A DNA stretch of 64,000 nucleotides from Candidatus Uhrbacteria bacterium (GTDB lineage Bacteria; Patescibacteriota; Patescibacteriia; UBA9934), in assembly GCA_963822405.1 (NCBI GenBank), contig CAWGHH010000001.1:151296-215295 (forward strand). Direction: 5' to 3'. Under the pieces are notes generated by a model. It was not told the DNA's origin. It saw only the letters and a list, made by a program, of their open reading frames with translations, and ran no database searches. The position numbers were made by a program, and so were the translations under genes. This document shows, in pieces, positions 1 to 15,359 of the stretch (its first letter is position 1; the number at the start of each line of letters is the position of its first letter).

Positions 1-25
1 GAGAAAGAAACCATTTGCTTCGCGT

Positions 26-769
26 TTAGTAAGCGAAGCCGTAACCCGCATGCTCGCAACCGAGCTCGCGGGTGGCCACGTGCCAGAGCGTGGTCATGGC
101 GCTACAATGGCCATCGCTGAAGCGCGACGACTCCTCGTAGACGAAGATTTTCTTCAGGGCAGCGGAGTAGCTGCCGAAGAACTTCGCCTCGCTAGGTTCA
201 CCCGTGGCGATAATCGCCAGGATGTCTTCGGCGGCTTGGTCGGGGTTAAACCCGGTGACCAGACGCTCGCGGCCGCCGTCCGTGGCCACCTTCCAGGCAA
301 GCGCGGTTCGGAGATCTGGAGCCGCCTCGTGGTGGAAACCGCCGTCGGAATCGACGAACCCGATGGCCCGTCCCTCGGTGGCGATTTCGATCGAGAACCC
401 GACCTTCTCCGGGTCGAGACCGATCTCCCGCGCGATGCCGCGATAGCGCAGCGCGCACAGCTGCGCGAGCGGGGTCGGGGACGTGGTCCCCAGGATTGCG
501 GTACCGTTGCGATCACGCAACGTGCCGACCACCATCGGGTCGGCCAGCCCGAACTGGGTCAGATTCGCCCGGATCGGGTGCGCGGTCAGGGCATCCGCCT
601 CCCAGTAGAGGCGCGACGACTCTTCCGCGAGGGCCTTGTACTCGGGGTCGTTTTGGGCCTCGGCCAGCCCAATTTTTTTCTCCTTGGAGATCCGGTCGCG
701 AGCCGTGTAGGCCCGGTCGGAGGCGGTCTTGTACGCCGCGTGCGCGACGAGATATGTATCAATGGACAT
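26..769 (-). CDS. hypothetical protein (247 aa) in GC-rich island
   Basis: Long ORF; ATG at 769 preceded by AAAGGAGAG RBS; no recognisable motif; GC visibly higher than the rest of the window. Confidence 0.5.
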   Translation of the reverse strand: MSIDTYLVAHAAYKTASDRAYTARDRISKEKKIGLAEAQNDPEYKALAEESSRLYWEADALTAHPIRANLTQFGLADPMVVGTLRDRNGTAILGTTSPTPLAQLCALRYRGIAREIGLDPEKVGFSIEIATEGRAIGFVDSDGGFHHEAAPDLRTALAWKVATDGGRERLVTGFNPDQAAEDILAIIATGEPSEAKFFGSYSAALKKIFVYEESSRFSDGHCSAMTTLWHVATRELGCEHAGYGFAY

Positions 770-823
770 TTTCTCTCCTTTCCCGCAATTGTAACCGGCG
801 GGTTCGGGTGATTTTACAGCAGC

Positions 824-878
824 ATCCTCAACGAACGTCTTAAAAAGAATGTAAGTTTTTAAGCAGTTGGTTGAGGAT
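824..878. promoter_or_regulatory. 9-bp inverted repeat (ATCCTCAAC / GTTGAGGAT) around a 37-nt spacer, upstream of the 26..769 gene
   Basis: Perfect IR seen directly at 824-832 and 870-878; sits in the promoter region of a minus-strand gene. Confidence 0.3.
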
Positions 879-929
879 CCCGGCCAGACAATGGTGCATT
901 GTCAGCCGAGATCTTGGGTGCGGTTCCTG

Positions 930-1040
930 CTACCGTTTGGTCAGCAGGAACCAGACAATCTGGGCGTAGGCGAGTGCGATCAAGCACCCGCTTCCGCCGA
1001 AACAGCAGAGGACAAAGATGTCCCCGACCTGGTGGGCCAT
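930..1040 (-). CDS. 36-aa hydrophobic peptide (MAHQVGDIFVLCCFGGSGCLIALAYAQIVWFLLTKR)
   Basis: ATG at 1040 with GGAGG 6 nt upstream; single TM-like hydrophobic stretch; the longer 930..1220 ORF is probably an over-extension. Confidence 0.3.
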   Translation of the reverse strand: MAHQVGDIFVLCCFGGSGCLIALAYAQIVWFLLTKR

Positions 1041-1129
1041 AGCGGCCTCCGTGGTTGTTGTCGAGTGAACGCTCGACGCGTGTTTTGGACTCCGTCGGTT
1101 AATTCCAGACGGCATCCAGCCCGATTTTT

Positions 1130-1495
1130 TTAGCTCTCCAGGGCGGAGAGGAAGAGCGGGAGGAATTCCTCCCACCCTTTTGGGGCGTTCGCCCGCGGTT
1201 CCCGCAGGCACTTGGCCCATGTCTCCGCCGGCGCGGGCCAGTACGGCGCGCGCCCATCACCCAGCACCTGCCGCAACCGGCGGGCGACTTCCTCGTGGAA
1301 GCGCGCCTCTCCGGCCATGTAGACGCCGTGATCCCAGCCGAATTCCGGGCTCGCGGACCAGGAAAAGGCCTCGCCTACGCGAGCGGTTTGCGCCGCCTGC
1401 TGGTGCCGGGTGGCGGCCTCGGCGACCGTCATGAGGCCGTGGTTAACCACGGCCCTCGCCACTGCGGCGGCGATTTCTTTTTCAGTGCGGGCCAT
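1130..1495 (-). CDS. hypothetical protein (121 aa)
   Basis: ATG at 1495 preceded by GGAGG (ttGGAGGccatcATG); the ORF extends to a TTG at 1507. Confidence 0.5.
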   Translation of the reverse strand: MARTEKEIAAAVARAVVNHGLMTVAEAATRHQQAAQTARVGEAFSWSASPEFGWDHGVYMAGEARFHEEVARRLRQVLGDGRAPYWPAPAETWAKCLREPRANAPKGWEEFLPLFLSALES

Positions 1496-1541
1496 GATGG
1501 CCTCCAATCAAGGAACTCGATCGCGCATGAGCTGCGCAGTG

Positions 1542-1594
1542 ATCGGTCCTCATCTGATCACTCAAGGGAGAGAGTCCTTAAGTGATCGGATGAG
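1542..1594. promoter_or_regulatory. Conserved long hairpin in 5' leader, copy A (conserved stem arms, variable apex)
   Basis: Left arm ATCGGTCCTCATCTGATCACTC pairs with AGTGATCGGATGAG (14 bp, one G.U); apex forms an AAGG/CCTT mini-stem; copy B at 2652-2703. Confidence 0.45.
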
Positions 1595-1673
1595 AATCCC
1601 TGAAGTGGTCGAGTGTCGACGAGACTTCAGGGATTTAGAGTGACGTAGTTGCGGAGCGTTAGCCCCACACCCG

Positions 1674-1964
1674 TCACCCACGTTGGTACCAACCCCCGTT
1701 GTTGGTTCGGTGTCCCTCCTTATGGATGGACATGATTTCCTTCCGGAGCTCTTTTCGAGCCACTCCTGGGGTCATGCCTGCTGGCGGAGCGAGTACGAAA
1801 AATTCGTACACCGCTCCGCGGTGGCAGTCCCCGCAGTATCCGTCATCCCAACAGCAGCACATTGTGCCGCCGTGGTTCAGACGGCGCGTTTCCGCGCCTG
1901 TCTGGACGAACCCCTGCGCGAGCAACCGCGCGAGGATAAGGTGGGATCGGGTTTTAATGGACAT
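1674..1964 (-). CDS. Cys-rich small protein (96 aa; CCCWDDGYCGDCH cluster)
   Basis: ATG at 1964 with AGGAGG RBS; dense Cys/His cluster suggests metal binding. Confidence 0.5.
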   Translation of the reverse strand: MSIKTRSHLILARLLAQGFVQTGAETRRLNHGGTMCCCWDDGYCGDCHRGAVYEFFVLAPPAGMTPGVARKELRKEIMSIHKEGHRTNNGGWYQRG

Positions 1965-2150
1965 TTTTCCTCCTTAAGAGGTTGATCGGTATGTCATACC
2001 GAAGCGTATTGATACGATCTCAACGCTCTCAAAATCCACAACCTCCATCATGAATTTTGAGAACGCGCCCTGGTACCGCTGTGTGCGTGGGTACCAGAGC
2101 GAGCGAAATTTTTTGGCAGACTATTCCTGGTCTGCCGGCAGGTACCGCCT

Positions 2151-2378
2151 TTACCAGGCGGTGTTGTTGAAGAAGGACTCCATGTCCTCCTTCGACGCTG
2201 CCCCCATGGGGCAGTCGTGGCTGTCGAGCGCTTCTTTGCGCTCGGCTAAGAGGGACATTCCGTCCCTCTGGAGATTCACCACGGCATACGTGCCGTGGAA
2301 CCCGCGCCACCCACCCGTGAGGGCGAGGAGGACGGGGACGAGCTGGGCGCTCATTCCCCCGTTCGCCACCAGGATCAT
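2151..2378 (-). CDS. hypothetical small protein (75 aa)
   Basis: ATG at 2378, 10 nt downstream of the preceding gene stop (operon-like); contains a CPMG motif. Confidence 0.4.
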   Translation of the reverse strand: MILVANGGMSAQLVPVLLALTGGWRGFHGTYAVVNLQRDGMSLLAERKEALDSHDCPMGAASKEDMESFFNNTAW

Positions 2379-2388
2379 ATGATCCTGG

Positions 2389-2577
2389 TCAGTGGTCTCG
2401 GCCCGGAGGCGCCTTGACCGCCTCGGAGACGGTGGCCGTGGCCACCCCCTCCGGCGGGGCGATGCGGTCGTCGTCCATGACGACGACCGTCGGGGTTGTT
2501 TTTGGGAATTCACGGAGGGCATCCGCGAGGATGCCCTCCACGTTCCGACCATTGAACACCAACAGCTTGGTCGACAT
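2389..2577 (-). CDS. hypothetical small protein (62 aa)
   Basis: ATG at 2577 with GGAGG 5 nt upstream; the listed ORF start at 2643 is a GTG inside the leader hairpin. Confidence 0.4.
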   Translation of the reverse strand: MSTKLLVFNGRNVEGILADALREFPKTTPTVVVMDDDRIAPPEGVATATVSEAVKAPPGRDH

Positions 2578-2651
2578 GGCGACCTCCAATTGAGTGACTC
2601 GATTTTTCCTCATGACTTCCGGCAAACATTTGCCAGCGGTCACGGAATAAC

Positions 2652-2703
2652 ATCGGTCCTCATCTGATCACTCGAACGGAGGATGTTCGAGTAGTCGGAT
2701 GAG
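2652..2703. promoter_or_regulatory. Conserved long hairpin in 5' leader, copy B
   Basis: Same 22-nt left arm as copy A; right arm GAGTAGTCGGATGAGG; apex forms a CGAAC/GTTCG mini-stem. Confidence 0.45.
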
Positions 2704-2806
2704 GAGAGGGGACCAGGCGAAGTGTTCGCTATGTCCCCTCACACGTCACTTTTCTTTTTAGGCTTGCCGGTAGGTTGTGCCAAAGGAAAAGAAAGTGAGA
2801 AAGAAC

Positions 2807-3052
2807 CTAATTGGGACTACCAGTCCCCGCACTCATTGGCGGGGACTTCGAGCCAGCGAGCGTATAGCCCGCCGAGGTTTCCTTTCGTCCCTTCTCGCCG
2901 GTATCCGGCGACGGCCACGTACCAGCGGCCGTCCTGCTGGACGACCGCCCCTGCCTCGGGGCTCTGAGCCAACCGGGCTCAGGGCCATGCCCCGAGGGTC
3001 CGTTTTCGGATCCTTCCTGGGCGGCAAGTTTCATGATTTCGGTTTTTTCCAT
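2807..3052 (-). CDS. Gly/Ser/Pro-rich small ORF (81 aa) behind the shared 67-nt leader; frame uncertain
   Basis: ATG at 3052 immediately after the AGGAGGAAAAA RBS that ends the conserved leader; low-complexity product. Confidence 0.3.
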   Translation of the reverse strand: MEKTEIMKLAAQEGSENGPSGHGPEPGWLRAPRQGRSSSRTAAGTWPSPDTGEKGRKETSAGYTLAGSKSPPMSAGTGSPN

Positions 3053-3055
3053 TTT

Positions 3056-3122
3056 TTCCTCCTTGCACTTTTAGATGCAGGTAATCGGCCCCCGTGTGAT
3101 GGGGTATGGTGTGCCGACCGTC
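3056..3122. promoter_or_regulatory. 67-nt conserved 5' leader element, copy 1 (about 5 mismatches against copy 2)
   Basis: ttcctccttgcacttttagatgcaggtaatcggcccccgtgtgatggggtatggtgtgccgaccgtc; carries the RBS and a CCTTGCA...TGCAGG stem adjacent to it. Confidence 0.5.
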
Positions 3123-3336
3123 TCTGATGAGACGGGTTTAACAAATTCGGAGCAAAGTTGCCTCCGACATAAACTCTCCATCATGAAGAATTTGTGTCGA
3201 AGGACGAGGAAGAGCGGTGCATGTGCTCAATTCCTCGCCTACGGGTGCTAATCATGTCCTTGTTGGACTTCACCGCGCAGATGGGGCACGTGTCAGTTTC
3301 TATAGGAGCTGTAGCCCCAGAAACTGACAAAGAAGG

Positions 3337-3561
3337 CTATTCCTGCGTATTGCCGCAGGAAGGGCAGACGCCGACCTTGTCGGCGTTGCCGAAGGCGCCC
3401 AGATGGGCGCCGCAACTCCAGCACGAAACGTCGTGCTGGATGGTCAAAGGGGGGGCGACTATCACCCCCCCACACTCTGGGCACAAGAGAGCCCCTGAGC
3501 CGTGCCTTATCGGCACGACTCCTGCATTGTGCGTGCAGACCGGGCACTGGATGTGATCCAT
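3337..3561 (-). CDS. double zinc-ribbon small protein (74 aa; four CxxC pairs)
   Basis: ATG at 3561 with AGGAGG RBS inside leader copy 2; CPVC, CPEC, CWSC and CPSC motifs. Confidence 0.5.
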   Translation of the reverse strand: MDHIQCPVCTHNAGVVPIRHGSGALLCPECGGVIVAPPLTIQHDVSCWSCGAHLGAFGNADKVGVCPSCGNTQE

Positions 3562-3563
3562 TG

Positions 3564-3630
3564 TTCCTCCTTGCACTTTTAGGTGCAGGTAATCGGCTCC
3601 CGTATGATGGGGTATGGTTTGCCGACCGTC
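3564..3630. promoter_or_regulatory. 67-nt conserved 5' leader element, copy 2
   Basis: Near-identical to 3056-3122; sits immediately upstream of the zinc-ribbon ORF. Confidence 0.5.
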
Positions 3631-4107
3631 CCGGAAGGGGCGGATTTAGGAAATGGTCGAGCGCATCGGTCACACCGACAGCGTAGTGTCCGCGTCGATG
3701 TCGTTGATTAGGACCTCCGTGTCCTGATCCACTACCAGGCCGAGCCTGATGGCGAGTGCAACCTGTTGACAGGTCGCCAACGTCACGAGCCGGGTGCAGC
3801 CGGCGTGGTGATCGAACGAGAATCGACGCCCGGAGGCATCGACCTGGGGCCCTGCACGGCCCCATCGAGCGCGATCGAGTTCACACAGAGGTTCTCGAAG
3901 GAGACGACCTGGCCGAACACGAAGTTGATACGCATGGTGTCCTCACTCCCGGTTTCCGCCGGGTCGGGATTGTCACGGCTTATAACCAGCTTCGAACTTC
4001 CAGGTGTTGACGATCTCTCGTCAGGGGCTGCGGCAGGTCGAGAAACTCGACTAAACCGACTAACGCCTGAACACCTTTCCGTCCAAACTGGCTACTCGCC
4101 AATCAGC

Positions 4108-4401
4108 TCAGCATTCCAGAACATCCGGTTTGCTGATAATGATTGCTCTCTCTAGAGCTTCGAAGATTTCAAGTGGAGGCTTGAAAACTTTGAAGTACCA
4201 GTGAGATTTGAGGTTAGGCTCGCCGTAGTTTCTGCATTCAGAAACCTCATCAGCAAGCCTGTACGTTTTCGTCAAAAACTTTCGTTTGTGACGCTCTCTA
4301 TGGGTACATTGCGGATGGAGGCCGGAATGTACGCATGGAGAGTTTCTCCGGAACCTCATGCTTGTGCACTTGGCCCGATAAGAATCAAGAAAAGGATCCA
4401 A
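4108..4401 (-). CDS. hypothetical Cys/His-rich basic protein (97 aa) at the GC-shift boundary
   Basis: ORF only; C...C...H...CTH pattern is loosely HNH-like but not diagnostic. Confidence 0.25.
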   Translation of the reverse strand: MDPFLDSYRAKCTSMRFRRNSPCVHSGLHPQCTHRERHKRKFLTKTYRLADEVSECRNYGEPNLKSHWYFKVFKPPLEIFEALERAIIISKPDVLEC

Positions 4402-5051
4402 GGTGTCCTACTGCTTAAGGTCGAGTGATCACAATCGGCACTGAGTGTCGTGTGAGTTCGATGATCTTAAGACCGGACAGCTAAAGATTTAGCTTTTCTT
4501 CTCTCGTTATTTAATTGTGAATGATCTTCCTCTCTCCTTGATGGTCGGCATTTGTGCTTGCAAGTCCATCTGTCTTGGTAAGGAATGCAGGAGGCTCGAC
4601 TGCTTTTTACAGCGTTCAAGCTCCCGCGCACTCATTACCACTTACATTCTGCTAGGGATGTAAGGGGGAGCCGCGTGGTAGCCACTCGTCCTAAGACAAG
4701 TGCAGGTATTCCGGATGCGGTTCCAACGTGATCAGTATCGACTGATCAATCTAGCGAACTGATCTCACTTTCGAGCAATGCCCTCTCTTGGGCACGCGTT
4801 GCTCAAACGGATATCAGTATGTGAAGGTCTTCTTCTTTCGCCCTCTCTCGGGCAATTAAAGAAAGACAGGTTTACAGTTCTTTCGTAGAGAGATCTGCAA
4901 ACCTGTCCTCAGGAGCTTCTACCCTCCATATAATGGTGGGGAACTTCTGCGTCCCATTTTTTACAGTTGGGCTTCTGCTCTCTCTGGTTGTTAAAGGTTC
5001 GGTTTGGTCTAGATCTCTGTGCTTGGTCTGTCGTCCCTTCCTCACCTGACC

Positions 5052-5080
5052 ATCGTACCATAAATTCTAACTTCTGTCAA
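5052..5080 (-). promoter_or_regulatory. Outward-facing promoter TTGACA-N17-TGGTACGAT directed into the ORF-poor region 4440-5040
   Basis: -35 at 5075-5080 and extended -10 at 5052-5060, read on the minus strand. Confidence 0.35.
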
Positions 5081-5146
5081 GCAAGTCCTGGCAATGCACA
5101 TAAAAAAAGGCCAAGGTTAGCAAAGAAAGATATCCCCATTCTGCCA

Positions 5147-5161
5147 TTGCCAATTTGGCAA
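5147..5161. promoter_or_regulatory. Perfect 15-bp palindrome TTGCCAATTTGGCAA over the putative -35 of the TrmB-family gene (candidate operator)
   Basis: Palindrome seen directly; TAAAGT -10-like hexamer downstream; 23 nt before the ATG at 5184. Confidence 0.4.
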
Positions 5162-5183
5162 AGTGTGGTAAAGTGGTCTGTAT

Positions 5184-6032
5184 ATGTACACTGAACTACT
5201 TCAGAAGCTTGGGCTTTCGGAAAACGAGGCCAAAATGTATGAGCTACTCCTTATAAAGGGGGAGTCAAAGGCCGTGGATTTGGTGCCAGAGTCCGGTTTA
5301 GGCCGGGGAAATGTGTATAACGTGTTAACAACGCTGGTTTCTAAGGGGTTAGTGACGGTTACTGCTGGGACTAAGCAGATATATAGAGCGGCGGAACCTA
5401 CAAAGCTTGTTTCTTTGGTTGAAGCCCGAAAACGCGAAGCCGATCGGCTCGATGCCGAATTCAAGGAAGAATTGCCCAAATTAAACTCGACTTTCAATTT
5501 GACCACAGGAAGACCGGCAATCCAGGTATTTGAAGGGTATGAGGGGGCAGAGGAAGTGATTATGGATTCGTTGAACGCGCCGGACGGCATTCTTACTTAC
5601 CTTGATGTTTCAGCTTTAACTGGCGAGTTTGCGGAGATTAACAAGCGCTATCTTAAGAAGCGCATTACAGCAAAAATTCCGAAGTGTATTTTGGCGGCTG
5701 ATACACCGGAGGCACATGCCTTTTTTGCCAATCAAAATACGCCCTTTACTTATATAACGTATTTGAAGGATTACCCAAGTAATTTCAAGACGGCGATGGA
5801 AGTGTACGGAAACAAAGTAACCTATCTAACTCTTTCGGACGAAAAACAGATTTCAGTCATGATCGAGGACGTAAATATCGCTAAAATGCATCGGGCGCAG
5901 TTTCATTATCTGTGGAAGGCAGCCGGGGGAGAGCCTACGCAGCTTCTTTCAGCTGTTTCGCCAACTCCACTCGTGGCTCAAAGACCAGCGTCCGCAGATT
6001 CGGATTCTTTGGATCGGCGTAATAACGCGTAA
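5184..6032 (+). CDS. TrmB-family transcriptional regulator (N-terminal wHTH plus sugar-binding-like C-terminal domain)
   Basis: N-terminal LLQKLGLSENEAKMYELLL...GRGNVYNVLTTLVSKGLV matches the TrmB HTH; C-terminal tail overlaps the convergent gene by 98 nt. Confidence 0.7.
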   Translation: MYTELLQKLGLSENEAKMYELLLIKGESKAVDLVPESGLGRGNVYNVLTTLVSKGLVTVTAGTKQIYRAAEPTKLVSLVEARKREADRLDAEFKEELPKLNSTFNLTTGRPAIQVFEGYEGAEEVIMDSLNAPDGILTYLDVSALTGEFAEINKRYLKKRITAKIPKCILAADTPEAHAFFANQNTPFTYITYLKDYPSNFKTAMEVYGNKVTYLTLSDEKQISVMIEDVNIAKMHRAQFHYLWKAAGGEPTQLLSAVSPTPLVAQRPASADSDSLDRRNNA

Positions 6033-9205: not shown

Positions 9206-9849
9206 ATATACGCCAGATTTTTCTGGAATATTGGCGAGCGTTTCGGTTGCCTTAAGTGTGCCGTCAGCAGCAAAAATTTTAATATCAGCCGGGCCTCCGG
9301 GCCGGCGCCGGTAATTATTTCGGCCTTGCCGTCACCGTCTACATCGCCACAGGCAACGTTAACCCCTGTTCGAAGTTTTTCGTCATAAGCAAAAAAGTGC
9401 ACTTTGAGATATGTCCCATCGGCGGAGAACTCGCGCACTTGCGGACCACCGCCGTACATTGCGCCGGTGACGATGTCATTTGTACCGTCACCATTAAGAT
9501 CGCAAATTGCTACATTGACCCCGCTTTTCATACCGGTTGCGTACGAAGAAAATTCTTTGATAAGTGAGCCGTCGAGCCGCATAACTCGAACAAGCGGTTT
9601 GTTTCCTGAGCCAGCGCCAACGACGATTTCGCTTGTGCCATCAGCGCCAAGATCGCCTACGGCTACGCTACCGGCGGCGTCCCCGGCTTTATCAAACGGC
9701 CTGAACGAAGAGACCAGATCTCCGTTGGGTGAAAAGATTTTCAGCTCAGTGCCAGTTGGTGGAACTGGAGTTTTAGTTGTAGCCGCGAGTGAAGTTAGCG
9801 GTGAAAAGGCGGTACTTACAAGGACTGCGAGCACGATTGTGCGGTTCAT
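9148..9849 (-). CDS. FG-GAP/VCBS repeat protein with signal peptide; N-terminal part of a frameshifted FG-GAP plus L,D-transpeptidase gene
   Basis: Repeats GDLNGDGTNDIV and GDVDGDGKAEIITGAG; product turns to junk after ITGAGP at about 9290-9310, in a ccgggcctccgggccggcgccgg tract. Confidence 0.6.
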   Translation of the reverse strand: MNRTIVLAVLVSTAFSPLTSLAATTKTPVPPTGTELKIFSPNGDLVSSFRPFDKAGDAAGSVAVGDLGADGTSEIVVGAGSGNKPLVRVMRLDGSLIKEFSSYATGMKSGVNVAICDLNGDGTNDIVTGAMYGGGPQVREFSADGTYLKVHFFAYDEKLRTGVNVACGDVDGDGKAEIITGAGPEARLILKFLLLTAHLRQPKRSPIFQKNLAYMCSLATSTRTRRTKSWPHQ

Positions 9850-10786: not shown

Positions 10787-10808
10787 GGGCCGACATCGAA
10801 GTCGGCCC
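10787..10808. repeat. REP palindrome copy 1 (GGGCCGAC-ATCGAA-GTCGGCCC); a half-copy at 10833-10848
   Basis: Perfect 8-bp stem with a 6-nt loop, TTACTA tail. Confidence 0.7.
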
Positions 10809-10844
10809 TTACTATGGGGATCGAAGAGTAGCAGTCGGCCCTTA

Positions 10845-11651
10845 CTACGAAAGCTGCGCGGGCGTGTACTTGGTTTCTGAGAAGTTTTTGTAGAGGTCTT
10901 CCTCGGCTATGATATTGCCAGTGCGTTTGTCGATTGTTTGCCGGCAAATAGTATTTTTTCGGAAATACTTACCGGTTTTTTCGTCTTGAATAAAGGCGTG
11001 GTCTTTTTCGAAAACGTGATAAGTCACTTTTGGTTCATGTTTAGATCGAATCTCGCCGTGCAGATATTTGCTGTCGAGCCACAAGCGCACTTCGAAAGTT
11101 TCAGCCGTGTCATTTTTGAGAGCGAAGTCGAGATAGTTGTAAAAAAGCGTCGCGCCGGTACCAAAGGGGACGACTCTGTTAGAGTCCGGGAATGCATCGA
11201 AGCTGTGATGATGTCGCTCGTGCACAGTGAGCGGCGAGTGAAGCGCTAACCAGTGAAGCATGTTGGCCACGGCGCAAAGGCCGCCACCAACTCCGCGCAT
11301 TACTTCACCATCAGATAGCATCAATCCCTCAAGGTAGCCCTTTCGCGTGGTGGGTTTCCCAACAAGTCGCCAAAACGAGTAGATCTCTCCGGGCTTAATC
11401 AGGATTTTGTCAGCCTTTTTTAGGGCGAGTGCCAGGTTTGTCACTTTGTTGTATTGCAAGGTCATGTCGACCCCCTCGAGTTTTCGCAAGAGCGTCGATT
11501 CATGGGCGTAGACCTTGTGCGGTAACGGTTTCGCCGCTTTTTTTGTGGCGAATTTTTGGGAACCGAAGTACCAAGACCATTGTCGTTTGAGTCTGAGACC
11601 GGTTACTGCGAGGGGATAGAGGAGGGGGTGAGATTTTCGAGAGATGGGCAT
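10845..11651 (-). CDS. VanW-family protein
   Basis: GVGGGLCAVANMLHW resembles the VanW GGGxCQ motif; start placed at M19 (11651) because the upstream part is REP-derived. Confidence 0.5.
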   Translation of the reverse strand: MPISRKSHPLLYPLAVTGLRLKRQWSWYFGSQKFATKKAAKPLPHKVYAHESTLLRKLEGVDMTLQYNKVTNLALALKKADKILIKPGEIYSFWRLVGKPTTRKGYLEGLMLSDGEVMRGVGGGLCAVANMLHWLALHSPLTVHERHHHSFDAFPDSNRVVPFGTGATLFYNYLDFALKNDTAETFEVRLWLDSKYLHGEIRSKHEPKVTYHVFEKDHAFIQDEKTGKYFRKNTICRQTIDKRTGNIIAEEDLYKNFSETKYTPAQLS

Positions 11652-11659
11652 AGGGGAGA

Positions 11660-11680
11660 GGGCCGACATAGAAGTCGGCG
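11660..11680. repeat. REP copy 2 (degenerate right arm)
   Basis: gggccgacatagaagtcggcg. Confidence 0.6.
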
Positions 11681-11695
11681 AGCAAAGATCTGAAG

Positions 11696-11717
11696 GGGCC
11701 GACATAGAAGTCGGCCC
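11696..11717. repeat. REP copy 3
   Basis: gggccgacatagaagtcggccc plus TTACTAC tail. Confidence 0.7.
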
Positions 11718-11723
11718 TTACTA

Positions 11724-12311
11724 CTAGGTGTCAGTATATATCACTGGGTGGCCGTCGTTCCACCATGTATTTGGGTTGTTGACGATATATTGCCGAATCC
11801 GATCGAGATCACCGTTTGCGCGGGTTATGTGTTCGTAATAATTCGTTTGCCATAATCGCCGATCGTAGTATTTGTGATTGATTTTATGCCATCGAATATA
11901 TTCATTGGTCGAAACCGATTTGAACCATTGCATCACCCGCGGTAAATCCGTCGGCGCCGGCAAATTGTTCGTCGTAGGGGCCGACTTCGATGTCGGCCCT
12001 TTCTCATCAAACATTTCCACAATCCCGTGAAAATGATCCGGCATCACCACGTATTCGTGTAAACGTACATTTGAAAATTTGTTTGGTATGGTTGCCCACC
12101 ATTCGGTGATCATTGAACCGAATGCGGTTAAACGGATGTTGACCAGAGGGCCGACATTGAAGTCGGCCCCTACGCCGCGATTGACGATTACGTCGCCGAA
12201 AATACCGTCGCGGTTGTTTGCGTTTAATGTCACGTAATACAATCCGGGTGTCGAATAATCAAATCCTGGCAATCGTGGATTCTTACGTCCAATTTCTTTC
12301 CATGAAAACAT
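11724..12311 (-). CDS. REP-associated tyrosine transposase (RAYT / TnpA_REP, IS200-like HuH Y1), carrying two in-frame REP insertions
   Basis: HuH motif MPDHFHGIV; Tyr motif RRLWQTNYYEHITRANGDLDRIRQYIVNNP, YafM-like; REP copies 4 and 5 lie inside the ORF without breaking the frame. Confidence 0.8.
   Translation of the reverse strand: MFSWKEIGRKNPRLPGFDYSTPGLYYVTLNANNRDGIFGDVIVNRGVGADFNVGPLVNIRLTAFGSMITEWWATIPNKFSNVRLHEYVVMPDHFHGIVEMFDEKGPTSKSAPTTNNLPAPTDLPRVMQWFKSVSTNEYIRWHKINHKYYDRRLWQTNYYEHITRANGDLDRIRQYIVNNPNTWWNDGHPVIYTDT
11978..11999. repeat. REP copy 4 (inverted orientation, loop TTCGAT) inside the RAYT CDS
   Basis: gggccgacttcgatgtcggccc; translates in-frame as KGPTSKSAPTT. Confidence 0.7.
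12148..12169. repeat. REP copy 5 inside the RAYT CDS
   Basis: gggccgacattgaagtcggccc; translates in-frame as RGVGADFNVGPLV. Confidence 0.7.
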
Positions 12312-12419
12312 AAAACCCCATTCGTGAGATCGATTATGCGTCGATCATTTACGCCTGGGGAGTTATGTATATTGCACCATGTTATTTGGGCGGTTCTGGG
12401 TGGTCTGTGCATAACCGCC

Positions 12420-12441
12420 GGGTCGACATAGAAGTCGACCC
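12420..12441. repeat. REP copy 6 (variant GGGTCGAC arms) abutting the stop codon of the dehydrogenase gene
   Basis: gggtcgacatagaagtcgaccc; gene stop at 12442-12444. Confidence 0.65.
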
Positions 12442-13428
12442 TTACTTCACCGCATTCGGTGGTGTCTTTCCGTCCAGGAACGCCAGAATGTTCTCGGCGG
12501 CGGCGCGGCTCATGGCCTGGCGAGCTTCGATGGATGCGCTGGCCGTGTGAGGCGTGAGGACGACGTTTGGGAGTTTGCGGAGATCGTAGGTATCTGTCGG
12601 ATCGCAGTCGATGAGTGGCTCGCACTCGTAAACGTCCAGGCCTGCGCCGGCGATGTCGCCATGGGCGAGAGCGACGACCAGCGCCTTCTCGTCGATAATT
12701 GGTCCGCGCGACGTGTTGATGATGTACGCCGTCTTTTTCATGAGCTTCAGTTCACGCTCGCCAATGAGATGGCGAGTAGACGGCAGTAGGGGAACATGCA
12801 AAGACACGAAGTCAGCATGTTTCAGGAGCTCGTCTTTTTCCATGAAGGTCGCCCCAAATGCTTGTTCGAATTTTTCGTTTGGTTTGATGTCGTTGTAGAT
12901 GATCTTGATCCCGAAACCGTCATGCATTCGTTTGGCTAATGCCTCGCCAATAGCACCTCCGCCAATAATGCCGAGTGTCTTGCCGATTACGTCGACGCCG
13001 AGGAACATCTTTGGACCCCAGCCCCTATACTTGCCGGCGCGCGTGAAATCATCAGTCTCGACTATTCTATGGGCGAGCGCAAAGATAAGCGCGATGGTGT
13101 GCTCAGCGACGGTTTCCGAAACCTCAGGAGCGCGAGCGTTTGTCACCATGATCCCGCGCTTTTTAGCAGCCTCGAGGTCAATGTTGTCGAACCCTACCGC
13201 GTAGTTCGCGATCATTTTCAATTGTTTTCCGGCTGCACGCATGATCGAATCGTCGATCTTGTCGGTCAGAAGCGAAAGGATGATGTCGACCCCTTTTACA
13301 TTCGATTTTAGAACGCCAACTGGAATATTTTTGTTTTCCTCGTACACTTTTACCTCAATATCTGGTCGAGCCCGGAGCATTTTCAATCCTTCATCTGGAA
13401 TATCACGAGTCACGAAAATCTTTATCAT
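12442..13428 (-). CDS. D-isomer-specific 2-hydroxyacid dehydrogenase (glycerate / hydroxypyruvate reductase-like)
   Basis: NAD-binding GIIGGGAIG; catalytic region ...HVPLLPSTRHLI...; C-terminal TPHTASAS motif. Confidence 0.85.
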   Translation of the reverse strand: MIKIFVTRDIPDEGLKMLRARPDIEVKVYEENKNIPVGVLKSNVKGVDIILSLLTDKIDDSIMRAAGKQLKMIANYAVGFDNIDLEAAKKRGIMVTNARAPEVSETVAEHTIALIFALAHRIVETDDFTRAGKYRGWGPKMFLGVDVIGKTLGIIGGGAIGEALAKRMHDGFGIKIIYNDIKPNEKFEQAFGATFMEKDELLKHADFVSLHVPLLPSTRHLIGERELKLMKKTAYIINTSRGPIIDEKALVVALAHGDIAGAGLDVYECEPLIDCDPTDTYDLRKLPNVVLTPHTASASIEARQAMSRAAAENILAFLDGKTPPNAVK

Positions 13429-13430
13429 AA

Positions 13431-14144
13431 TTACTCAATTTTTGAGAAGTCGAGAGACGCGCGAATAATTTTCCAACCATCTTCCACACCGGCTGGCGCA
13501 CCTTTCCAAAGATCAAATTCTACCTGGGTTACGTTTTTATCAGTCGCGTACCAGATAACTTCATTGATTTGATAATCTATAGCGCCGGAAAAAGCGCCTT
13601 TTGCTATGACTACACTCTTCCCATTGATAACTTCATCTGTGAGGGTCACTTTTTCGTCTGGTGGGTAGGCGGCTGTTACTAGATCTTTAAGTGTTTTGAC
13701 GCCCAGCTGCGGAAATTCGCTTTTTGGACGAGTGTCCATGTTGACTGCAAAAATTGGTCCACCACAGTCAACACACGAATGATCCATGAAACCCGGGCTT
13801 ACTACTACTGAATATGTTTGGATTGAATCTAGTGGAGTTAGTTTTTCTTCTCTCAGCTCGCCAACTGCAGACCAGCCGGCAGGATAGGAAAAACCAGGCC
13901 GACGAGTATTTGCTGAGACGACGATTGTCTTAGTTTTCGCGGCTTCTTCACAGGCTTTAGTAACTTTTTCTGATTCTATCTTGATTGCAGCACCGACCTC
14001 AGCCTTACAAGCCGCGGCAATTGCCACCGAGTCTGGCCTGTTAGCATTAAAGAGAACTATGAGAGCAATGGCGCCAACTGACAAGCAAAGAATTGCGCCA
14101 ATAAGCGAGAAAATTAGAAAGGGAGCTTTTGAGGAGGACGGCAT
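13431..14144 (-). CDS. membrane-anchored hypothetical protein (237 aa)
   Basis: N-terminal TM helix; no recognisable motif. Confidence 0.45.
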   Translation of the reverse strand: MPSSSKAPFLIFSLIGAILCLSVGAIALIVLFNANRPDSVAIAAACKAEVGAAIKIESEKVTKACEEAAKTKTIVVSANTRRPGFSYPAGWSAVGELREEKLTPLDSIQTYSVVVSPGFMDHSCVDCGGPIFAVNMDTRPKSEFPQLGVKTLKDLVTAAYPPDEKVTLTDEVINGKSVVIAKGAFSGAIDYQINEVIWYATDKNVTQVEFDLWKGAPAGVEDGWKIIRASLDFSKIE

Positions 14145-14333
14145 ATTATTTTATTGCAGCTACGGCTGCCTCGGCGCAGGCTTTTGCAATGGTGTTAGCG
14201 TCGACTCTTGTTTGATAAAGCTGAACTAATAATACGAGTACCGCAATAAGCAGACCAAGGTTCCATAAGAGGAACATGATGGCCCAGCCTTTGCGTTTGT
14301 TTGGTTGTTCGGGCATATGCCCCTAAGTATACG

Positions 14334-15359
14334 CTAGCGAGAGGTAAATATCCGAATCTCATCCATTAACTTCTTGTTCGGCCACTTAGTGAGGAGTCCG
14401 GCTTTTGCCCCAACGTGTTGAATAACGCTTTCGGAGTTGAGCGTGCCGATCTGCAAAGCCTCGTCTACAGTTAATCCTTTCGCTAGAGCTGAGACTACGC
14501 CGGAACCAAATGCGTCACCAGCGCCAGTGGTTGAAATTGGGTGAATGTTTCTGGTTCTGGCCGAGTATTTGATTTTTCCCATCGAGGCATACGCCCCGCG
14601 AGGTCCGTCGGTCACCACGTCGAGTGTAGCGGTCGACTTCGATGTCGACCCTTGCAAGGCCACAGCCAGTTCCTTCCCATCTTTGGTTGACAGTCCCGTC
14701 AGTGTCTGTGCTTCTTCGAGGTTCACAAACAACACGTCGACATCTTTCAGGAGTGGTCGAAGTTCAGATGCCTTTGCAAGCTCGCCTCCACCTGGGTTTA
14801 CGGAAATTTTTGCGCCGGTTTTTTTGGCGTGCGCGATAATTTTTGAAAGTAAGGCAATGTTCCCGGATAGGGAAGACACGTAATACCATTTCGCCGAAAG
14901 GGTTTTGAGTGGCACGTCGGCGAGTGAAAACTCGGCGGAGACACCGCGGTGAACAAGCGCGGTTCGTTCGCCAGTCGGTGCTGTTAGTAGCGTGCTGTAG
15001 GCGGTTTGCCCACCTTTAATGCGCTTGACCATGGTCGCGTCGATCTTGTAGCGAGCGAGATCGCGCAGAACGTCGTCTCCCGGTTCGTCATCACCAACTC
15101 GCGATACGATGCCGGTGACGAAACCGAGATTCGCAAACGTCGCGGCGGCATTCGTTGCTCCACCGCCCGTCGACAGAACCACTTGTTCGACGTCAATCTT
15201 TGTTCCGAGGGCGACACACTCGCCAACGCCAGTAGAAAATTTGTCGGATTTGAGGAGTTGGAATTCTTTCGAAAGTAAAAAGACGTCCCGAACAGCGGAA
15301 CCGATGGTGATGATGTCGTACATATGCCCCCATTCTACACCGCGGCATTTCTTTTCCAA
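14334..15359 (-). CDS. PfkB-family carbohydrate kinase (ribokinase-like) with an in-frame REP insertion
   Basis: TTGAGDAFGSGVVSALAKG signature; REP copy 7 encodes GSTSKSTAT in a loop. Confidence 0.8.
   Translation of the reverse strand: MEKKCRGVEWGHMYDIITIGSAVRDVFLLSKEFQLLKSDKFSTGVGECVALGTKIDVEQVVLSTGGGATNAAATFANLGFVTGIVSRVGDDEPGDDVLRDLARYKIDATMVKRIKGGQTAYSTLLTAPTGERTALVHRGVSAEFSLADVPLKTLSAKWYYVSSLSGNIALLSKIIAHAKKTGAKISVNPGGGELAKASELRPLLKDVDVLFVNLEEAQTLTGLSTKDGKELAVALQGSTSKSTATLDVVTDGPRGAYASMGKIKYSARTRNIHPISTTGAGDAFGSGVVSALAKGLTVDEALQIGTLNSESVIQHVGAKAGLLTKWPNKKLMDEIRIFTSR
14630..14651. repeat. REP copy 7 (GGTCGAC variant, inverted) inside the PfkB CDS
   Basis: cggtcgacttcgatgtcgaccc. Confidence 0.65.

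Follow-up and report, generated by a model that had tools for sequence, protein, structure and literature searches.

A repeated pair of abutting hairpins between the genes of a GC-rich island in Candidatus Uhrbacteria: a candidate cis-acting RNA motif

The 64,000-nt stretch analyzed here (the window; positions 151,296 to 215,295 of contig CAWGHH010000001.1, assembly GCA_963822405.1, Candidatus Uhrbacteria bacterium) carries at its left end a gene island, positions 1–4100, of ~60% G+C (compared with ~47% in the remainder), between the genes of which a long hairpin, hairpin A, recurs with a second hairpin, hairpin B, beside it. All credible genes of the island lie on the minus strand, as judged from the open reading frame (ORF) list, the GGAGG sequences 6–8 nt before the ATGs, protein homologues and codon-position bias; a GGAGG-type Shine-Dalgarno (SD) sequence precedes each gene, two genes have protein homologues, and the gene for a 96-aa Cys-rich protein (1674–1964) shows a third-codon-position bias of 21/22/54 against its homologue. 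In gene sense, the others are a truncated remnant (3686–3935) matching the N-terminal part of a 329-aa gene that is intact in a relative, a 74-aa zinc ribbon gene (3337–3561), two apparently frameshifted ORFs (2807–3052 and 2151–2577), a 121-aa gene (1130–1495), an ORF for a 36-aa hydrophobic peptide (930–1040, with a GGAGG SD; MAHQVGDIFVLCCFGGSGCLIALAYAQIVWFLLTKR) and a 247-aa gene (26–769). The frameshifted and truncated genes suggest that the island is decaying in this genome, or that the sequence contains errors.

The repeat was first noted in an initial annotation as two hairpins with an identical 22-nt arm. The 22-mer ATCGGTCCTCATCTGATCACTC is duplicated exactly at 1542–1563 and 2652–2673, and a search of the window at up to three mismatches returned only these two copies (expected number 0, from 100 shuffles). 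The partner arms, AGTGATCGGATGAG at 1581–1594 and GAGTAGTCGGATGAGG at 2688–2703, are as annotated, and the apical mini-stems AAGG/CCTT and CGAAC/GTTCG are likewise borne out; the apices differ, with pairing retained. Both copies are 19-bp hairpins that fold alone at −27.8 kcal/mol (the 1542 copy, z = −5.75) and −22.5 kcal/mol (the 2652 copy, z = −3.9), and within a 111-nt context at z = −5.9 to −6.9 on either strand. Several details of the annotation required revision. As the island genes sit on the minus strand, what had been called the left arm is, in mRNA sense, the 3′ arm together with a 6-nt tail; the start codons, placed 70–110 nt downstream, are in fact 52 nt (ATG 1495) and 80 nt (ATG 2577) away, the plus-strand starts implied by the larger distances belonging to spurious ORFs. 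The hairpin described is real but constitutes only half of the repeated unit, since a second long hairpin abuts it in both places (1595–1636 and 2706–2740).

Read in gene sense, hairpin A has a common plan: a 7-bp base (CCUCAUC/GAUGAGG), a C·A mismatch, a 12-bp upper stem, in which the apical four to five pairs vary among copies, and a pyrimidine loop, either ACUCUCUC or AUCCUCC. The first window copy, W1 (1548–1595, minus strand), follows this plan with the loop ACUCUCUC, its 3′ arm and tail being the reverse complement of the 22-mer; the second, W2 (2658–2704, minus), has the identical 3′ arm, the apex CGAAC/GUUCG and the loop AUCCUCC. A third, diverged copy, W3 (826–876, minus), has the base CCUCAAC/GUUGAGG, the loop ACUUACAUUCU and several compensatory pairs; ATG 769, the start of the 247-aa gene, follows 56 nt downstream. 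Hairpin B abuts hairpin A on its 5′ side and varies in sequence while sharing a design, with an outer stem of 8–12 bp, an internal loop, an inner stem of 5–7 bp and a CAC triloop or a GCAC-containing apex. In W1 (1595–1636, minus) it comprises a 12-bp stem, internal loop, 5-bp stem and CAC triloop with no spacer to hairpin A; in W2 (2706–2740, minus) an 8-bp stem, internal loop, 5-bp stem and CAC triloop; and in W3 (876–913, minus), where it again abuts hairpin A, 16 pairs with one bulge and a CAC triloop. The hairpin B–hairpin A modules are intercistronic, 52–89 nt ahead of the next start codon. W1 continues into leader 1 (1496–1547, minus), made up of the tail ACCGAU, a hairpin C (1518–1545), the SD GGAGG (1501–1505) and the end at ATG 1495; hairpin C is short and resembles a truncated copy of hairpin A. 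Leader 1 serves the 121-aa ORF in the window.

A homologue of the 121-aa protein pointed to a locus syntenic with the island, in a Patescibacteria metagenome-assembled genome (MAG), contig JBAZWW010000002.1 (= Ga0376277_0000537; loci L002, L020, L021, L013 and L019). Here too a GC-rich island is enclosed by the TrmB regulator and an 852/856-aa gene, but the genes that it holds are different. Three more copies of hairpin A are present there: La, before the homologue of the Cys-rich gene; Lb, followed, like La, by leader 1; and Lc, after the 121-aa homologue. All six copies in the two genomes have the same orientation relative to the genes and are abutted by hairpin B. The helix of hairpin A consists of 19 pairs and one mismatch, a single C·A (or C·C) opposition with no bulged bases, and that of hairpin B of 14–17 pairs; the loops of hairpin A are of 7–11 nt, or 18 nt in Lb. 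The C·A mismatch and the basal CCUCA/UGAGGA are kept in six of six copies, and W1, La, Lb and Lc have the same loop, ACUCUCUC. The relative's GC-rich island also contains two PIN-domain toxin–antitoxin pairs of host-like G+C (L020 5464–5930 and 10536–11121), both inserted in reverse, and one of these interrupts the ORF downstream of Lb.

A covariance model (R1) built from four copies recovers Lb at 31 bits and finds W3 at 24.1 bits (E about 7e-4); in the window it reports three copies in 1–4100 and none in 4101–64000 (~59 kb), and it finds no copy in 108 kb of other Patescibacteria loci. Scans with the conserved 18-mer reached 11 metagenome and 6 genome loci, among which the hairpin occurs only in the related MAG, the other 14 loci being chance matches with no complementary arm. 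The exact 22-mer, together with the core of a second leader family (D2, below) and two leader segments, had no match in IMG/VR, and BLASTN searches with the island and the leader found no match in phage or plasmid collections. Between the two genomes the modules are 85–91% identical, compared with 66–77% for the flanking ORFs. When four copies are aligned, 97.4% of cells pair and three pairs carry double changes, whereas slid controls fall to 29–45% pairing; in the six-copy alignment, 94.7% of cells pair, 9 of the 19 pairs show double compensatory changes, and none of 2000 column shuffles matched the pairing, the number of double changes or the covariation score. Because MAFFT placed Lb out of structural register, the six copies were aligned by hand with the structure as anchor; as the copies are related and the alignment manual, the covariation figures are supportive rather than probabilistic. 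The locus thus holds a structure-constrained, conserved hairpin family in the leaders of co-directional island genes, with further copies and compensatory changes, and not the simple local duplication that the initial annotation had allowed for should neither be found.

The modules are mosaic: through hairpins B and A, W1 and Lc share 91% identity, but they diverge 2–7 nt past the stem, and leader 1 precedes three different ORFs; the breakpoints fall at the ATG too, not only at the hairpin. One ORF has leader 1 in one genome and a D2 leader in the other. D2 is a second repeated leader family (3053–3146 and 3561–3654) that, like the leader 1 module, comprises three hairpins followed by an SD; its window copies are 86% identical to each other and 85–91% to the relative (L020 about 11245–11335), and one of its hairpins is compensatory (CCGUCUC-AUCA-GAGACGG compared with CCGCCCC-UUCC-GGGACGG). 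In the relative, D2 precedes the 121-aa homologue, the window gene having leader 1 instead. The sequences of the D2 and leader 1 modules were also considered as sigma-54 or extracytoplasmic function (ECF) promoters, and were rejected as such on misfitting hexamers. Long hairpins are a general property of the island: they pack eight of eight intergenic regions, making hairpin A the most conserved member of a general pattern. Another of them, a ~20-bp hairpin upstream of the Cys-rich gene (window 2023–2072, minus; L020 11171–11222), has four G·U pairs on the gene-sense strand, is 83% conserved in the relative and carries one-sided compensations, a clear RNA-level structure. The clustering of GATC in the island (26 occurrences, 14.7 expected) was discarded as a lead, being weak and due to the palindromic stems.

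The island is headed by a sigma-70-like promoter, TTGACA-17-(TG)TACGAT (5052–5080, minus), which points into it and is conserved at L020 2145–2173. Between this promoter and the island genes lies a conserved, structured, non-coding leader (4294–5045, minus), rich in GAGAGA and bearing GAGAGA and AAGAGA hexaloops. The non-coding region from the TrmB gene to the island spans 4294–5179 in the window (minus sense) and 2046–2984 in L020, about 0.87–0.95 kb; the ~0.87-kb leader aligns between the genomes at 75% identity, exceeding 95% in long blocks, and has no codon periodicity (81/74/74), no ORF and no Rfam match. The evidence that its structure is conserved is strong: the consensus fold (alifold) reaches −213 kcal/mol, compared with −130 ± 7 in column shuffles, with 31 compensatory pairs against 8.7 ± 3.3. 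On these sequence comparisons the region is a candidate large structured leader or non-coding RNA; an nhmmer search with the leader gave no match elsewhere in the window or in the other Patescibacteria loci. In W1, W2, W3, La and Lb, the stretch from hairpin A to the following start codon contains no sigma-70-like promoter, a terminator scan reported nothing at 1542–1640, 2650–2745 or 818–915, and the sole convincing intrinsic terminator stands at the island end (L020 12194–12212). Instead of the two operons first described, the island is a single array of minus-strand genes that all point the same way, with one conserved promoter and leader at its head; most simply, a single long transcript would cover the array, with the modules between its cistrons.

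The loop of hairpin A recurs on other stems. In two further Patescibacteria loci, reached through homologues of the 247-aa protein, L025 (GCA_021844065.1) and L031, a search for long stems around CUCUC loops found the identical 8-nt loop ACUCUCUC on a 21-bp stem of unrelated sequence. The hairpin is located here in the 3′ untranslated region (UTR) of 259-aa homologues of the 247-aa gene, 15 nt before a canonical intrinsic terminator, and it folds at −30.8 (L025) and −26.3 kcal/mol (L031) in gene sense, compared with −20.7 kcal/mol in antisense. A conserved loop, free stems and strand-asymmetric pairing are together the signature of an RNA hairpin that is read at its loop. Other hairpins with CUCUC at or near the apex occur in leaders or UTRs of this gene neighborhood (L027 9810–9865 and L031 about 9730–9790), are followed by U-runs and look like attenuators; a short GGG-ACUCUCUC-CCC remnant lies directly before the island terminator (L020 12138–12151), and a (CU)n/(GA)n theme recurs across these loci.

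Taken against known systems, the element belongs to no described family and is a new candidate cis-acting mRNA stem-loop motif of narrow distribution. Rfam (4227 families) yielded only tRNAs at the gathering score in the window, L020, L025, L027 and L030, and on 1–5300 at E values up to 5 it gave chance miRNA-precursor-like matches alone, none of them on the hairpins. Tandem interspaced guide RNA (TIGR) arrays comprise tandem stem-loops with two 8–12-nt spacers in the loops, box C/D flanks and an adjacent Nop-domain Tas protein (PMC12045711). The element does not fit this plan: its loops are of 7–11 nt (18 nt in Lb), it forms no tandem periodic array, and the island proteins returned no Pfam hit of any kind. 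A hammerhead core was rejected, the sequence reading CAGAUGAG or CUGAUCA and not CUGAUGA.

With the modules more conserved than the ORFs, and with the attenuator, operator, attC and passive ribonuclease III (RNase III) alternatives weighed below, we favor, at a probability of roughly one half, a hairpin of a polycistronic mRNA that is recognized specifically at its loop, most likely by a protein, and governs processing, stability or translation; a protein-binding hairpin was among the options of the initial annotation and is the likeliest of them. We infer that the array is transcribed as one mRNA, that the module acts at the RNA level and that a binding factor exists. In this model the repeated unit would be an RNA element on the gene-sense (minus) strand, consisting of two abutting, probably coaxially stacked stem-loops. 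The transcript would start at the promoter near 5050, cross the ~0.87-kb structured leader and run through the small ORFan genes, with the module placed between cistrons in the island and, in a further lineage, within a 3′ UTR. A putative trans-acting factor, most likely a protein, would read the loop, basal stem and mismatch on a rigid ~20-bp helix, and its binding may set the processing, stability or translation of the neighboring cistrons from a 5′ or a 3′ position. Hairpin A forms an independent domain in every leader fold and does not sequester the SD. The iron-responsive element (IRE), the MS2/PP7 operators and lambda boxB are loop-specific protein-binding hairpins, of which the IRE and the MS2 operator act from 5′ or 3′ positions. 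The element described here shares with them a conserved loop, a helix irregularity, a covarying stem and portability between 5′ leaders and 3′ UTRs; however, its stem is longer (19–21 bp), it is paired with a second hairpin and it has no sequence in common with them, so the analogy is one of logic and not of membership.

Several observations weigh against this reading. Within the family shared by the window and L020, G·U pairs and A·C mismatches are balanced between the strands and the summed energies are −277.5 kcal/mol in sense and −282.0 in antisense, a symmetry that leaves the strand undecided in that family. Four copies from two diverged genomes have exactly the same 22-nt 3′ arm, which recent recombination or gene conversion could explain as well as selection. 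Lc is followed by a promoter-like TTGCAA-17-TATCAT (score 9/12), and may therefore lie upstream of a transcription start. No candidate binding protein was found: members of the 247-aa family accompany the motif in two lineages, but the 20-kb L020 locus has no 247-aa gene, so that strict co-occurrence was dropped. The element is present in two lineages (three with the loop-only relatives), and its copies are paralogues, not independent samples, compared in a manual alignment.

Foremost among the alternatives is that the helices are passive double-stranded RNA, with no sequence-specific factor: 19–21-bp stems that serve as RNase-III-type signals cutting the mRNA into stable monocistronic pieces, their sequence likeness reflecting common descent. 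Bacterial RNase III cleaves ~20-bp helices, and the RNase III signals R0.3–R1.3 of the phage T7 early genes are repeated intercistronic stem-loops whose copies have a common origin. The stems here are about two helical turns long, a ~20-bp helix does stand between co-directional ORFs of what would be a single RNA, the array has no internal terminators or promoters, and long hairpins fill every intergenic region of the island. As in T7, these are related, roughly two-turn stem-loops with an internal irregularity, between cistrons of a long co-directional transcript. Unlike the T7 signals, however, two hairpins abut, the loop and the apex of the partner hairpin are kept despite stem replacement, a constancy for which RNase III has no need, and the element is found in a 3′ UTR beside a terminator as well; cleavage here is putative. 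Passive processing leaves unexplained the identical 8-nt loop on unrelated stems in another lineage, the C·A mismatch and basal CCUCA/UGAGGA of all six copies and the recurrent CAC apex of hairpin B, and it is not needed where the hairpin (L025/L031) precedes an intrinsic terminator by 15 nt. We consider this explanation unlikely.

A role at the DNA level, as a recombination site or selfish palindrome (attC-like, REP-like or recognized by an HUH/Y1 enzyme) that shuffles cassettes in a hypervariable island, would account for the mosaic modules (the divergence of W1 and Lc past the stem, the swaps of leader 1 and D2), the strand-symmetric pairing and the identity of the 22-mer across diverged genomes. 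Gene content differs at the same locus, and the reversed PIN toxin–antitoxin pairs are as in sedentary integrons. Like integron attC sites and attC clusters lacking an integrase (CALIN), the elements are ~50–60-nt imperfect palindromes between promoterless co-directional ORFan cassettes behind one promoter, with content that varies between relatives, and the CCTCAAC/GTTGAGG of W3 comes near the attC core sites (RYYYAAC/GTTRRRY). Among the six copies, though, only W3 fits these core sites, the other five lacking AAC/GTT for the most part in favor of ATC/GAT: the stem feet of W1, W2, La and Lc are CCTCATC- or CCTCACC-type with GATGAGG, and that of Lb is TCTCATC/GACGAGG. The extrahelical bases and unpaired central spacer of attC are absent; there is a single mismatch, and both strands pair alike. 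The 20-kb L020/L021 loci have no Phage_integrase match, nor any integrase or transposase, on record, and the island proteins of the window show no match to such a family (the island extends past the left edge of the window). Several cassettes carry the D2 leader in place of hairpin A, some genes have no element, and mosaic joints occur also at start codons, where there is no hairpin. A cruciform needs no loop conservation, and the L025/L031 hairpins are strongly strand-asymmetric, as RNA would be. Repetitive extragenic palindromic sequences (REP) and bacterial interspersed mosaic elements (BIME) are also imperfect intergenic palindromes, often in tandem and transcribed within operons, and REPs can stabilize upstream mRNA. 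REPs, however, number tens to hundreds of copies scattered over the whole genome; this element stays within the island (three copies in 4 kb, none in the window's remaining 59 kb), points one way in every copy and has a conserved loop. Ends of an IS200/IS605-type transposon were considered and rejected, there being no Y1 transposase and three to six copies instead of two ends. On account of the cassette-like mosaicism and the reversed PIN pairs, a DNA-level role retains a small share of probability.

The hairpins might also be terminators, or partial terminators (attenuators), between genes, giving declining expression along the array. The tandem stem-loops are very stable and lie 16–76 nt past stop codons, host terminator-like hairpins may lack long U-runs (for example the D1 hairpins below), and Lc is followed by its promoter-like site. 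Yet the stem of hairpin A is followed by GACCGAUCAC, GACCGAUGUU or GAUGCUGCUG, with no U-tract, and the terminator scan is silent there; five of the six downstream genes have no promoter-like site in the 52–80 nt before the ATG. A classical attenuator, one of the original suggestions, or a riboswitch-type leader fares no better, as there is no competing antiterminator structure: the best duplexes of the 3′ arm with the next 48 nt reach −6.7 to −12.9 kcal/mol, compared with −16 to −30 for the hairpin, and are unconserved. The SD, unpaired with a probability of 0.05–0.42, is not consistently sequestered and hairpin A is uninvolved. An attenuator based on the direct repeat CCGAUCACU was likewise discarded, this repeat being found only with leader 1 and pairing weakly. 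The put RNA of phage HK022 consists of two stem-loops 0–1 nt apart, is present in more than one copy in early or leader regions and acts in cis as RNA, and it resembles in these respects the module, whose own cis action as RNA is putative; unlike put, the module has no terminators downstream that would have to be read through, occurs three times per island inside the operon and not just after promoters, and is unrelated in sequence. Termination is an improbable explanation of the element.

It is conceivable, though we hold it to be very improbable, that the module docks on the conserved leader RNA, its CUCUCUC loops kissing the GAGAGA/AAGAGA hexaloops in a network that would fold, scaffold or co-regulate the transcript. 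The two hexaloops are invariant, sit on GCCC/GGGC stems and are complementary to the ACUCUCUC loops, with predicted duplexes of −10.2 (GAGAGA) and −7.7 kcal/mol (AAGAGA); GAGAGA shows a ~20-fold enrichment in the leader, both genomes conserve the complementary motifs, and an island hairpin of the relative (L020 6033–6050, UCUCUC-GAG-GAGAGA) pairs both motifs in cis.

A palindromic DNA operator for a repressor common to the island genes, another of the original suggestions, can be all but dismissed on the covariation pattern, for although 13-nt inverted half-sites, CTCATC(C/T)GATCAC, are identical in four copies upstream of genes, they lie 20–24 bp apart around a “spacer” that itself pairs and covaries (AAGG/CCTT, CGAAC/GTTCG, TCAAC/GTTGG) and carries the conserved loop, they overlap no promoter, they are altered in Lb and W3 with pairing kept, and in the third lineage (L025/L031), the reverse of what an operator predicts, the 8-nt loop at the center is retained while both arms are replaced by unrelated ones, the sense strand folding ~6–10 kcal/mol better.

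To our knowledge, post-transcriptional gene regulation in the uncultured Patescibacteria (candidate phyla radiation) is almost unexplored. The element is a candidate cis-acting RNA motif, absent from Rfam, with a well-defined structure that is conserved better than the ORFan genes it separates. Should a specific binding factor exist, the recognition hairpin would offer a handle on operon punctuation in Patescibacteria and help to explain a GC-rich, hypervariable gene array behind a large conserved non-coding leader; an element acting on DNA would instead point to an unrecognized cassette-shuffling system, and kissing loops to a large non-coding RNA of the candidate phyla radiation whose partners in cis are dispersed. 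The weight of these prospects is limited by the narrow distribution, two to three lineages, and by the decayed look of several island genes.

Some further features of the island proteins and the surrounding DNA were recorded. Searches of the island proteins against Pfam, PHROGs and PADLOC gave as sole matches the zinc ribbon and, in the relative, a DEAH/HA2 helicase. The 247-aa protein is a member of an uncharacterized family (about 100 clusters) that occurs in Patescibacteria-like contexts, frequently in tandem duplication, is GC-rich relative to its hosts and has one member fused to a cold-shock domain; no relatives were found in IMG/VR. Its AlphaFold model is very confident (predicted local distance difference test, pLDDT, 96.3), but Foldseek matched it to nothing in the PDB, and the protein falls in no Pfam or PHROG family. 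The 36-aa peptide ORF, also called as a gene on an independent Logan contig, resembles the small membrane toxins of type I toxin–antitoxin systems. Outside the island, seven REP-like hairpins (the D1 family, GGGCCGAC-AUCGAA-GUCGGCCC followed by UUACUA) lie between host genes at 10787–14657; they probably represent terminators or repeats of the host, with no relation to the hairpins of the island. Finally, a promoter-like block, TTGACAA-N17-TATACT, recurs on the minus strand at 31119, 32448, 36987 and 47185 (and 5056–5081); it represents a near-consensus host promoter family with conserved spacers, to which the promoter at the head of the island is related.

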